Below, one piece after another: positions 28,176 to 58,774 of a stretch of DNA of 64,000 bases. The stretch's first letter is position 1; the number at the start of each line of letters is the position of its first letter. The notes beneath the pieces were generated by a model. The model was not told the DNA's origin. It saw only the letters and a list, made by a program, of their open reading frames with translations, and did not search any database. Made by a program: the position numbers and the translations under genes. Source of the DNA: Escherichia coli (GTDB taxonomy: Bacteria > Pseudomonadota > Gammaproteobacteria > Enterobacterales > Enterobacteriaceae); NCBI RefSeq assembly GCF_003334785.1, contig NZ_QOWV01000014.1; one strand, 5' to 3'.

Positions 28176-30077
28176 ATGAAACTACAGAACTCTTTTCGCG
28201 ACTATACGGCAGAGTCCGCGCTGTTTGTGCGCCGGGCGCTGGTCGCCTTTTTGGGGATTTTGCTGCTGACCGGCGTGCTTATCGCCAACCTGTATAATCT
28301 GCAAATTGTTCGCTTTACCGACTACCAGACCCGCTCTAATGAAAACCGCATTAAGCTGGTGCCTATCGCGCCCAGCCGCGGCATTATCTACGATCGTAAC
28401 GGTATCCCTCTGGCCCTCAACCGCACTATCTACCAGATAGAAATGATGCCGGAGAAAGTCGATAACGTGCAGCAAACGCTGGACGCTTTGCGCAGCGTGG
28501 TAGATCTGACCGATGACGATATTGCTGCATTCCGAAAAGAGCGCGCACGTTCACACCGTTTCACCTCTATTCCGGTGAAAACTAACCTGACCGAAGTACA
28601 AGTAGCTCGCTTTGCCGTCAATCAGTACCGTTTTCCGGGTGTCGAAGTTAAAGGCTATAAACGTCGTTACTATCCTTACGGTTCGGCGTTGACCCACGTC
28701 ATCGGCTATGTGTCGAAAATCAACGATAAAGACGTCGAACGCCTGAATAATGACGGCAAACTGGCCAACTATGCGGCAACGCATGATATCGGTAAGCTGG
28801 GCATTGAGCGTTACTATGAAGATGTGCTGCACGGTCAGACCGGTTATGAAGAGGTTGAAGTTAACAACCGTGGGCGTGTTATTCGCCAGTTAAAAGAAGT
28901 ACCACCGCAAGCCGGACACGATATTTACCTGACGCTGGATCTCAAACTCCAGCAATATATTGAAACGCTGCTGGCGGGTAGCCGCGCAGCTGTGGTAGTC
29001 ACCGATCCGCGTACAGGTGGGGTGCTGGCGCTGGTTTCCACGCCTAGTTATGACCCAAACTTGTTTGTTGACGGTATCTCCAGCAAAGATTATTCCGCCT
29101 TGTTGAACGATCCGAATACACCGCTGGTGAACCGCGCCACACAGGGGGTTTATCCTCCCGCGTCTACAGTTAAACCCTATGTGGCGGTTTCGGCATTGAG
29201 CGCCGGGGTGATCACGCGCAATACGACGCTGTTTGACCCAGGCTGGTGGCAACTGCCAGGTTCGGAAAAACGTTATCGTGACTGGAAAAAATGGGGCCAC
29301 GGGCGTCTGAATGTCACAAGATCGCTGGAAGAATCTGCGGATACCTTCTTCTATCAGGTGGCCTACGATATGGGGATCGATCGCCTCTCCGAATGGATGG
29401 GTAAATTCGGTTATGGTCATTACACCGGTATCGACCTGGCGGAAGAACGTTCCGGCAACATGCCTACCCGCGAATGGAAACAGAAACGCTTTAAAAAACC
29501 GTGGTATCAGGGTGACACCATTCCGGTTGGTATCGGTCAGGGTTACTGGACAGCGACCCCAATCCAGATGAGTAAGGCACTGATGATCCTGATTAATGAC
29601 GGTATCGTGAAGGTTCCTCATTTGCTGATGAGCACCGCCGAAGACGGCAAACAGGTGCCATGGGTACAGCCGCATGAACCGCCCGTCGGCGATATTCATT
29701 CCGGTTACTGGGAGCTGGCGAAAGACGGTATGTACGGTGTTGCTAACCGCCCTAACGGTACGGCGCATAAATACTTTGCTAGCGCACCGTACAAAATTGC
29801 GGCGAAATCCGGTACCGCTCAGGTCTTCGGTCTGAAAGCGAACGAAACCTATAATGCGCACAAAATTGCCGAGCGTTTACGTGACCACAAACTGATGACC
29901 GCCTTTGCGCCATACAACAATCCGCAAGTGGCTGTCGCCATGATTCTGGAGAACGGTGGTGCGGGTCCGGCGGTTGGTACACTGATGCGCCAGATCCTCG
30001 ACCACATTATGCTGGGTGATAACAACACCGATCTGCCTGCGGAAAATCCAGCGGTTGCCGCAGCGGAGGACCATTAA
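28176..30077 (+). CDS. mrdA: Penicillin-binding protein 2 (elongasome transpeptidase)
   Basis: 633-aa ORF with an N-terminal TM segment and the transpeptidase motifs STVK, SAD and KSGT. Confidence 0.95.
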
Positions 30078-44536: not shown

Positions 44537-45595
44537 ATGTTCGGCAATGATATTTTCACCCGCGTAAAACGTTCAGAAAATAAAAAAATGGCGGAAATCG
44601 CCCAATTCCTGCATGAAAATGATTTGAGCGTTGACACCACAGTCGAAGTATTTATTACCGTAACCCGCGATGAAAAGCTTATCGCGTGCGGTGGAATTGC
44701 CGGAAATATTATTAAATGCGTTGCTATCAGTGAATCCGTCCGCGGTGAAGGACTGGCGCTGACATTAGCCACTGAATTGATAAACCTCGCCTATGAGCGG
44801 CACAGCACGCATCTGTTTATTTATACCAAAACCGAATACGAGGCGCTGTTCCGCCAGTGCGGTTTTTCCACGCTGACCAGCGTACCCGGCGTGATGGTGC
44901 TGATGGAAAACAGCGCCACGCGACTGAAACGCTATGCCGAATCGCTGAAAAAATTTCGTCATCCAGGGAACAAGATTGGCTGCATTGTGATGAACGCCAA
45001 TCCCTTTACGAATGGTCACCGTTATCTGATTCAACAGGCTGCGGCACAGTGCGACTGGTTGCATCTGTTTTTAGTCAAAGAAGATTCTTCACGCTTCCCC
45101 TATGAAGACCGGCTGGATTTGGTGTTAAAAGGCACCGCCGATATTCCACGCCTGACTGTGCATCGTGGCTCCGAATACATCATCTCCCGCGCTACGTTCC
45201 CTTGCTACTTCATTAAAGAACAGAGCGTCATTAACCATTGTTACACCGAAATTGATCTGAAGATTTTCCGTCAGTACCTCGCTCCCGCGCTGGGTGTAAC
45301 TCACCGCTTTGTCGGTACTGAACCCTTTTGTCGCGTTACCGCCCAGTACAACCAGGATATGCGCTACTGGCTGGAAACGCCGACTATCTCCGCACCGCCC
45401 ATCGAACTGGTTGAAATTGAGCGGCTGCGTTACCAGGAGATGCCGATATCCGCTTCCCGGGTACGTCAACTGCTGGCGAAAAACGATCTCACGGCTATCG
45501 CGCCGCTGGTCCCTGCAGTCACGCTGCATTATTTGCAGAACCTGCTTGAGCACTCCCGCCAGGACGCGGCAGCTCGTCAAAAGACCCCCGCATGA
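44537..45595 (+). CDS. citC: [Citrate (pro-3S)-lyase] ligase
   Basis: Start at the internal ATG 44537 (MFGNDIFTRVKRSEN...), 352 aa. Confidence 0.9.
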   Translation: MFGNDIFTRVKRSENKKMAEIAQFLHENDLSVDTTVEVFITVTRDEKLIACGGIAGNIIKCVAISESVRGEGLALTLATELINLAYERHSTHLFIYTKTEYEALFRQCGFSTLTSVPGVMVLMENSATRLKRYAESLKKFRHPGNKIGCIVMNANPFTNGHRYLIQQAAAQCDWLHLFLVKEDSSRFPYEDRLDLVLKGTADIPRLTVHRGSEYIISRATFPCYFIKEQSVINHCYTEIDLKIFRQYLAPALGVTHRFVGTEPFCRVTAQYNQDMRYWLETPTISAPPIELVEIERLRYQEMPISASRVRQLLAKNDLTAIAPLVPAVTLHYLQNLLEHSRQDAAARQKTPA

Positions 45596-56884: not shown

Positions 56885-57448
56885 TTAGATTTTACCAACC
56901 AGGTCCAGAGACGGAGCCAGAGTTGCTTCACCTTCTTTCCATTTAGCCGGGCAAACTTCACCTGGGTGAGAAGCTACGTACTGTGCTGCTTTGATTTTAC
57001 GCAGCAGGTCAGACGCGTCACGGCCAATGCCTTCAGCGGTAACTTCGATTGCCTGGATGATACCCTGCGGGTCAACAACGAAGGTCGCACGGTCAGCCAG
57101 ACCTTCATCTTCACGCATGTTGTCGAAGTTACGGGTCAGGGCGCCAGTCGGGTCGCCGATCATCGCATATTTGATTTTAGCGATGGTTTCAGAGCTGCTG
57201 TGCCATGCTTTGTGGGTGAAGTGAGTATCGGTAGATACTGCGTATACGTCTACGCCCAGTTTCTGCAGTTCTTCGTAGTGGTCAGCAACGTCACCCAGTT
57301 CGGTCGGGCATACGAAAGTAAAGTCAGCCGGGTAGAAGAAGAAGACGCTCCAGCGGCCTTCGGTATCTTTTTCGGTGATTTCGATGAATTCGCCGTTTTT
57401 GAATGCCTGGTTTTTAAAAGGTTTAATTTTGGTGTTAATCAAGGACAT
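56885..57448 (-). CDS. ahpC: Alkyl hydroperoxide reductase subunit C (2-Cys peroxiredoxin)
   Basis: 187-aa ORF with the peroxidatic Cys motif FTFVCPTE and the resolving Cys in EVCPAKW. Confidence 0.95.
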
Positions 57449-57819
57449 CTATACTTCCTCCGTGTTTTCGATGAGATGTAAGGTAACCAATTTTTGCCGA
57501 TTCGGCTAATGCGTTTCCATTATCAAATCGATAAGTTTTACCTTACAACCTTCGTAAGACAACTTTGTGAACTTTGCACCGCCAGCGGCGATAAAAAGTA
57601 AAATGGCCCCCTTTCCAGGTGACCGTGTAATCTGAACTACCCTTTGGTATCTTCAGTGCCTGCCTGCAGGCTGAGGTGTTGCCCTTACAAATGCAACAAC
57701 GACATGGATTACAACACCCTCATAAACAAAGGGCAATCACCTGATCTAAGCTCTTACCTATGACAGTGATAGGTTATGCCTTTTACTCGACTTTTGCACT
57801 GACTGAAAAGGACAAATTA
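57449..57819. promoter_or_regulatory. Divergent ahpC / dsbG control region (expected OxyR-responsive promoter region)
   Basis: 371-bp spacer between divergent redox genes containing the palindrome CTAT-N7-ATAG at 57757-57771. OxyR control of ahpC is established knowledge; the exact site was not mapped here. Confidence 0.45.
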
Positions 57820-58566
57820 ATGTTAAAAAAGATACTTTTACTGGCTCTGCTTCCTGCAATCGCCTTCGCAGAGGAACTTCCTGCTCCAGTAAAAGCGATT
57901 GAAAAACAGGGCATTACAATCATCAAAACATTCGATGCCCCCGGAGGAATGAAAGGTTATCTCGGAAAGTATCAGGATATGGGCGTCACCATCTACCTGA
58001 CTCCAGATGGTAAGCACGCTATCTCTGGTTACATGTACAACGAGAAAGGTGAAAACCTGAGTAACACACTTATCGAAAAAGAAATTTACGCACCAGCCGG
58101 ACGCGAAATGTGGCAACGGATGGAACAATCCCACTGGCTCCTCGACGGTAAAAAAGATGCGCCGGTCATTGTCTACGTCTTCGCCGATCCGTTCTGCCCA
58201 TATTGTAAACAGTTCTGGCAGCAGGCGCGCCCGTGGGTAGATTCTGGCAAAGTGCAATTAAGAACATTGTTGGTTGGGGTTATCAAGCCAGAAAGCCCGG
58301 CGACAGCAGCGGCAATTCTTGCCTCCAAAGATCCCGCAAAAACCTGGCAACAATATGAAGCCTCTGGTGGCAAGCTTAAGCTAAACGTGCCTGCAAACGT
58401 AAGTACAGAGCAAATGAAAGTGTTAAGTGACAATGAGAAACTGATGGACGATCTGGGGGCAAATGTCACGCCGGCTATCTATTACATGAGTAAGGAAAAT
58501 ACGCTACAACAGGCCGTGGGGTTGCCCGATCAGAAAACGCTTAATATCATTATGGGGAATAAATAA
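57820..58566 (+). CDS. dsbG: Periplasmic disulfide isomerase/chaperone DsbG
   Basis: Start at the internal ATG ([17 protein letters not shown], signal peptide), 248 aa; thioredoxin CPYC active site. Confidence 0.9.
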
Positions 58567-58774
58567 AAGGTAATTCATGGATGGTTGAACTATATCCCTG
58601 CTTTTCAACCATCCTAAAAAAGCATGAATTGCTCGCTCTGCCCTAAGTGGCTGTGCTATTTTAGAAAAACTTAATCCTGAGTTAAGCAAAAAAACATAAT
58701 CAATAAAAATATATACGCAAAAAACATTGATTAAGTGAATATATCATGGAAGAAAAATATAACCGGAGTAGTGT

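Follow-up and report, generated by a model that had tools for sequence, protein, structure and literature searches.

We consider it very probable that the inverted repeat CTAT-N7-ATAG just upstream of dsbG in Escherichia coli belongs to the known dsbG-proximal OxyR operator, that this operator serves a promoter pointing leftwards (P2, the STnc70 promoter), and that the ATG at 57760, within the repeat, is not a start codon, DsbG being made from the ATG at 57820. OxyR is a LysR-type peroxide sensor, and in the mechanism proposed here a tetramer of its oxidised form would contact four ATAG-like elements, set one helical turn apart across 57747-57783, with the palindrome supplying elements 2 and 3 at what would be the junction of two OxyR dimers. 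From its position at -65, OxyR would act on a conserved sigma-70 promoter directed leftwards to ahpC, and the resulting transcript would open with STnc70 and for the most part stop at an intrinsic terminator at 57597, such that read-through past this point would yield a longer RNA, the 'second ahpC transcript'. The ATG at 57760 would be present because CTATG belongs to a half-site, with translation beginning at 57820.

The window, to which all coordinates refer unless stated otherwise, is a stretch of 64,000 nucleotides from an E. coli contig (NZ_QOWV01000014.1), and 57449-57819 is the 371-bp intergenic region between ahpC and dsbG (Table 1). On comparison its sequence proved to be 100% that of K-12 MG1655, and a window coordinate is converted to one of MG1655 (NC_000913.3) by subtracting it from 696393. 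Of 5,426 complete E. coli genomes, 5,423 matched a 701-bp query from the region, with 100% identity in many of them, and in 5,238 of the 5,423 the segment 57725-57825 is at least 99% identical. A genome scan with DsbG yielded 70 loci; ahpC and dsbG are divergent neighbours in all Enterobacteriaceae sampled, and the arrangement is absent in Pectobacterium. Two loci come from assemblies that are probably contaminated or mislabelled, as 'Chryseobacterium sp. 18061' carries an enterobacterial dsbG (75% identity) together with ahpC, and a 'Lachnospiraceae bacterium' MAG carries an enterobacterial dsbG at 97% identity. In Citrobacter amalonaticus AUH_CA_2023_1, dsbG is apparently frameshifted near its 5' end, the match beginning at residue 23 with a stop codon in the expected frame, which would make it either a pseudogene or an assembly error. 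Downstream of dsbG lies the LysR-type gene citR/ybdO (58775..59677). The dsbG stop codon is closely followed by an inverted repeat of 11 bp, GGATGGTTGAA...TTCAACCATCC (58559-58620), which has no T-run and was not called by the terminator scan; a match of 14/20 to the OxyR consensus at 58559, overlapping this repeat, is probably due to chance.

Table 1. Features of the ahpC–dsbG region, in window coordinates
Feature	Position	Strand	Remarks
ahpC	56885..57448	-	ORF list and RefSeq annotation; followed by ahpF
ahpC P1 transcription start site (TSS)	57472	-	Kim 2012 Table S1, 24-nt 5' UTR; Cappable-seq RRS 362
ahpC-proximal OxyR operator	57509..57545		centre 57527, -55 from P1; 10/16 core and 13/20 extended in E. 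coli
STnc70 leader/small RNA	57597..57700	-	104 nt; three conserved hairpins and intrinsic terminator
dsbG TSS	57662	+	unstressed cells; Kim 2012 Table S1; 158-nt 5' UTR; listed sequence ends ...CTTCAGTGCCTG
Leftward TSS (P2)	57700	-	Cappable-seq, U00096.2 637916(+), RRS 4.2; weak in unstressed cells
-10 hexamer TGTAAT, leftward promoter	57708..57713	-	TnTAAT in 52/53 species
-35 hexamer TTGCCC, ahpC P2/STnc70 promoter	57731..57736	-	TTG in 53/53 species
dsbG-proximal OxyR operator, TAAG-N7-CTAT-N7-ATAG-N7-CTTT	57747..57783		centre 57765; 13/16 core, 16/20 extended
Palindrome CTAT-N7-ATAG	57758..57772		inner pair (2 and 3) of the four OxyR half-sites
Upstream in-frame ATG	57760..57762	+	part of CTATG half-site; not the dsbG start; unused in RefSeq and PDB
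dsbG Shine-Dalgarno AAGGA	57808..57812	+	7 nt upstream of 57820; -5.3 kcal/mol
dsbG CDS	57820..58566	+	RefSeq, 248 aa; signal peptide is codons 1-17, cut at AFA|EE

A four-element OxyR site between ahpC and dsbG

A first-pass annotation had placed a CTAT-N7-ATAG palindrome of OxyR type at 57757-57771, covering an ATG at 57759 that opens the longest dsbG open reading frame. The motif is indeed there, but its true span begins one nucleotide later, with CTAT at 57758-57761, a 7-nt spacer at 57762-57768 and ATAG at 57769-57772, and the perfect inverted repeat reaches out to 6-nt arms, ACCTAT/ATAGGT, over 57756-57774. Likewise the ATG does lie within the left arm, as part of CTATG, although at 57760-57762. 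The bare motif is not significant alone: the 64 kb contain two matches where 0.52 would be expected, and two or more were found in 9 of 100 shuffles. The other match, at 28426-28440, lies inside a 633-aa open reading frame and is likely to have arisen by chance.

We took an OxyR operator to consist of four ATAG-like elements in an 11-bp register with dyad symmetry (ATAGnTnnnAnCTAT twice). The corresponding pattern, ATAG-N7-CTAT-N7-ATAG-N7-CTAT, fits 57747-57783 with three mismatches, and 0.09 such matches are expected per window; the only other 37-mer that matches as well, at 44780-44816, falls inside a 381-aa open reading frame and is again likely to be a chance occurrence. Scored against a 20-position consensus, in which each half gains two positions, 57747-57783 is the single best site in the 64 kb (16/20, with runner-up sites at 14), and the same consensus gives 12-17/20 at classical OxyR promoters, the oxyS-oxyR site reaching 16/20. 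The scan with an OxyR matrix that the first-pass annotation had called for points the same way, placing 57747-57783 first among 63,964 positions (22.3 bits, z = 5.2), although the six training sites, namely the best-matching 37-mer from each of the oxyS-oxyR, katG, dps, grxA and trxC regions together with the ahpC-proximal site, were picked by consensus match and not from footprints, which makes this a rough and not fully independent test.

In papers that cite Zheng et al. (2001; J Bacteriol 183:4571), the ahpC–dsbG intergenic region is described as holding two OxyR sites, and the control region of dsbG is reported to be bound by OxyR. Taken with the consensus and the matrix, these published sites bear out the OxyR character that had been suggested for the palindrome, which is the core of an already published E. 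coli OxyR operator; finding it here is a rediscovery. The two site centres in the window, 57765 and 57527, are 238 bp apart, and 57765 is 55 bp from the dsbG ATG at 57820. The footprint of 2001 is reported to have its centre 54 bp ahead of dsbG, at a distance of 238 bp from the ahpC site already known, and on this geometry we take 57747-57783 to be the dsbG-proximal site of that study. The dsbG-proximal site is further said to induce a second, longer ahpC transcript, and the ahpC-proximal site to induce both ahpC and dsbG.

The operator is conserved within the family. CTATG-N6-ATAG is found 50-57 bp upstream of the dsbG ATG in nearly all Enterobacteriaceae loci, representing about 50 species of Escherichia, Citrobacter, Salmonella, Klebsiella, Raoultella, Kosakonia and other genera, and a second OxyR-like 37-mer, 79 bp upstream of the ahpC ATG, is kept in nearly all species. 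In an alignment of 53 enterobacterial species, C57758, A57760, T57761 and A57769-G57773 are invariant in all 53, while the outer-arm positions vary on one side only and without compensation, and this combination of an invariant core with uncompensated changes in the arms is the pattern of a site for a sequence-specific protein and not that of an RNA hairpin.

The leftward promoter and the STnc70 RNA

Beside the operator, on the ahpC strand, lie a -35 and a -10 hexamer (Table 1) whose spacer is exactly 17 nt in 53/53 species. The start predicted from these conserved elements coincides with the TSS at 57700 in the Cappable-seq data, which as used here are those for the ahpC strand. Relative to this start the centre of the OxyR site falls at -65, as compared with -55 at P1, and is thus displaced upstream by one further helical turn (10 bp). 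Palindrome and leftward promoter were found together in all aligned species, and the only locus without the palindrome, that of Enterobacter sp. ENT03, also has neither the leftward promoter nor STnc70. From its position, from this co-conservation and from what the 2001 study is reported to have found, we infer that OxyR at the palindrome activates the 57700 promoter specifically.

Two Enterobacter loci depart from the common arrangement. The intergenic region of ENT03 is a natural deletion, 155 bp in length, which retains the ahpC-proximal OxyR site only. In Enterobacter sp. kpr-6 (261 bp), most of the sequence between the leftward promoter and ahpC has been deleted, the palindrome and the leftward promoter being kept and the STnc70 terminator lost, so that P2 would there run directly into ahpC.

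The promoter scan missed the leftward promoter because of the G at position 2 of TGTAAT. Its only call, TTGTAA/GATAAT, lies inside the ahpC-proximal OxyR site and is regarded as chance. An alternative -10 for P2, TATGAG (57719-24), would give a P1-like distance of -55; it is conserved in only 4/53 species and there is no TSS near 57711. A Reg-Seq preprint covered neither ahpC nor dsbG. The Cappable-seq data also contain a leftward TSS at 57764 (-), at the exact centre of the palindrome, which in unstressed cells is stronger (RRS 15.8) than that at 57700; its -10, TAACCT (57776-57771), occurs only in Escherichia sequences, and OxyR bound at the palindrome would block this start rather than activate it.

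The transcript that starts at 57700 opens with STnc70. The Rfam model RF02069 matches 57686..57593 on the minus strand with 42.7 bits (gathering score 40), and it matches 14 of 20 other loci with 53-186 bits. The block 57593-57700 (-), long and intergenic, is conserved to an extent equal to that of the OxyR sites and corresponds to this uncharacterised enterobacterial sRNA candidate. RNAalifold, run on 22 species, gives three hairpins with 22 pairs, of which 6 show compensatory changes, and the last hairpin has a GC-rich stem followed by TTTTTAC(T/G)TT; in E. coli this stem contains an A·G mismatch. A single-sequence fold of the E. coli region is not significant (z = -0.72), and the case for structure is that of covariation and Rfam. 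Term-seq (Adams et al. 2021) locates a 3' end in the U-tract, at 57597 (MG1655 638796(+)); it is not Rho-dependent and has an intrinsic-terminator score of 5.17. Since a Cappable-seq 5' end at 57700 and a Term-seq 3' end at 57597 bound it, a discrete 104-nt RNA exists in E. coli. Among the predicted candidates of Sittka (2008) is STnc70, located in the dsbG/ahpC intergenic region on the strand of ahpC; it had few reads there and was not enriched with Hfq (5 vs 7 reads), and the synteny and strand seen here agree with that description.

In Salmonella enterica subsp. arizonae and subsp. diarizonae the intergenic region is 440 bp long, as against 371 bp in E. coli, and the extra sequence is an insertion of ~59 nt in the first STnc70 hairpin. 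This insertion is part of the Rfam model and is absent from E. coli, Citrobacter and Klebsiella; one of the two subspecies loci (L017) scores 186 bits, compared with 42.7 for E. coli.

The starts at 57662 (+) and 57700 (-) are convergent and overlap by 39 bp, so that STnc70 and the dsbG mRNA are perfectly complementary at their 5' ends. Such an overlap could allow promoter interference or antisense control, and because of it either activation of the leftward promoter or the presence of OxyR in the dsbG leader could depress dsbG.

Readings that centre on dsbG or on another use of the palindrome

The first-pass annotation held that OxyR bound at the palindrome would regulate dsbG. What stands of this is that dsbG belongs to the OxyR regulon, DsbG protein having been reported as 2.63-fold up in a delta-ahp strain. 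Direct control of dsbG transcription from the palindrome, be it as an activator or as a repressor or roadblock, is on balance unlikely. In its favour, the operator is only 36 bp from the dsbG ATG, one paper has ahpC and dsbG activated 'via two OxyR binding sites', and a review notes that transcriptomic data suggest that oxidised OxyR may repress dsbG, which would fit a roadblock or interference between convergent promoters. However, dsbG was found in the literature to be unresponsive to sublethal H2O2 while other OxyR genes responded, and the geometry of the locus is unfavourable: the dsbG TSS is mapped 85 bp upstream of the operator, and the dsbG 5' UTR spans both P2 and the OxyR site, the operator occupying about +86 to +122. 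Activation in the usual register would be impossible, as transcription from a rightward promoter that had the operator at -55 to -65 could begin no earlier than the ATG itself, and there is no conserved -35/-10 between operator and ATG, nor any conserved rightward promoter before it, whereas the coupling to the leftward promoter is invariable. The reported assignment of dsbG induction to the ahpC-proximal site likewise counts against direct control from the palindrome. The promoter that the operator seems to serve is one directed away from dsbG.

That the palindrome is bound instead by a different regulator, such as the LysR-type CitR/YbdO, seems to us very improbable. T57759-N11-A57771 does fit the generic LysR T-N11-A box and, centred at -65, occupies the classical position of a LysR recognition site; a LysR-family gene is close by, at 58775..59677, and conservation of the 7-nt spacer (G..TGTG) exceeds what a model with OxyR alone would call for. 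Yet agreement with the four-element OxyR consensus (16/20) extends to the flanking elements and to positions T6/A10, the OxyR matrix puts this very site first in the window, the literature reports OxyR binding in the region, and no evidence of CitR binding was found. A hairpin in the dsbG 5' UTR, for instance one that hides the upstream AUG, is scarcely credible as the reason for the inverted repeat: the repeat is transcribed (TSS 57662) and a 6-bp stem with a 7-nt loop including the AUG could form, but neither the T57759-to-G change of 5 species nor the C57757-to-T change of 16 is compensated, and 57756/57774 can pair in Watson-Crick fashion in only 24/53 species, so that it is sequence and not pairing that has been conserved.

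As to translation, the first-pass annotation preferred the ATG at 57820, which opens the signal peptide, and this choice was right. The reason it gave, that an operator over the ATG at 57760 disfavours that codon as a start, fails, because the mRNA begins upstream, at 57662, and carries both ATGs, such that the position of the operator is silent on the choice. What speaks for 57820 is, first, a Shine-Dalgarno pairing of -5.3 kcal/mol, compared with -0.5 for 57760, and this element is conserved (median -6.0 kcal/mol in 55 species). The ATG at 57820 opens a canonical Sec signal peptide, MLKK...AFA|EE, with a positive n-region, a hydrophobic core and an AxA cleavage site; it is conserved in the aligned species and is the RefSeq start, giving 248 aa. 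In the numbering of the long open reading frame (268 aa, 57760..58566), the PDB chains have M21 or E38 as their first residue, which correspond to Met1 and E18 of the 248-aa DsbG. An ATG is present in the palindrome of 41/55 species because CTATG is a half-site, and just 6 of the 55 have it in the dsbG frame with no intervening stop. A proteomic determination of the mature N-terminus, as had been suggested, cannot separate the two starts, both precursors being cut at the same AFA|EE.

That 57760 is nonetheless a genuine alternative start, producing a 268-aa isoform in Escherichia, is extremely unlikely. From there the frame is open in two Salmonella subspecies as well as in Escherichia species, the dsbG mRNA includes both ATGs, and the current K-12 DsbG protein record is version 2, the earlier version presumably having had a different start. 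Against this, the pairing at 57760 is weaker than that of most ATGs in the window, and the additional 20 residues, with a net charge of zero, would leave the n-region of the signal peptide buried. Stop codons interrupt the extension in 49/55 species, and the peptide it encodes in Escherichia bears no relation to that in Salmonella. The computed masses of the 248-aa precursor and of the mature protein are 27.49 and 25.67 kDa, which sizes reported for DsbG in 1997 are said to match.

Relation to known OxyR sites and what the operator may be for

The dsbG-proximal site in the window has the same locus and sequence as that reportedly footprinted in K-12, and between the sites themselves there is no difference; what is added here is the conserved -35/-10 partner, a TSS at 57700 from which the transcript opens with STnc70, and the intrinsic terminator that this transcript meets. 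With the classical ahpC-proximal site at P1, reportedly described in 1989 and 1994, it shares regulator, target operon, helix face and species range. The two differ in placement, the P1 site having its centre at -55, directly against the -35 of P1, and the palindrome site at -65 from P2. Though it has the poorer consensus (13/20 vs 16/20), the P1 site belongs to a far stronger promoter (RRS 362 vs 4.2).

A further likeness is to the oxyR-oxyS unit, in which a four-element OxyR site similarly lies by the promoter of a short, structured and intrinsically terminated RNA, and the promoter of the small RNA similarly diverges from a protein-coding gene. The parallel has its limits. Control of STnc70 by OxyR is something we infer, STnc70 is unlike OxyS in not being Hfq-enriched, and, being located in the ahpC leader, it may work as an attenuator and not in trans. 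With these differences in mind, we raise as a tentative possibility, one that we would not yet favour, that the conserved job of the dsbG-proximal site is the control of STnc70 and not simply the provision of 'a second ahpC promoter', with the first 39 nt of the RNA (57662-57700) acting as antisense and its terminator gating read-through into ahpCF. Were this true, STnc70 would join OxyS as a small RNA, or an attenuator, under OxyR control, and the expression of ahpCF and dsbG would be linked via convergent, overlapping promoters. Our literature search found no published link between STnc70 and OxyR, and the connection between operator and STnc70 may be the only part of this account that is new.

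The observation as first posed matters little, the OxyR site having been known since 2001 and the dsbG start being 57820 in RefSeq already. What the corrected reading offers is the identity of the operator's evolutionarily conserved partner, the leftward promoter, the ATG in the palindrome being a by-product of the half-site. If the link between OxyR and STnc70 holds, an attenuator or antisense layer would be added to a textbook operon of peroxide defence.
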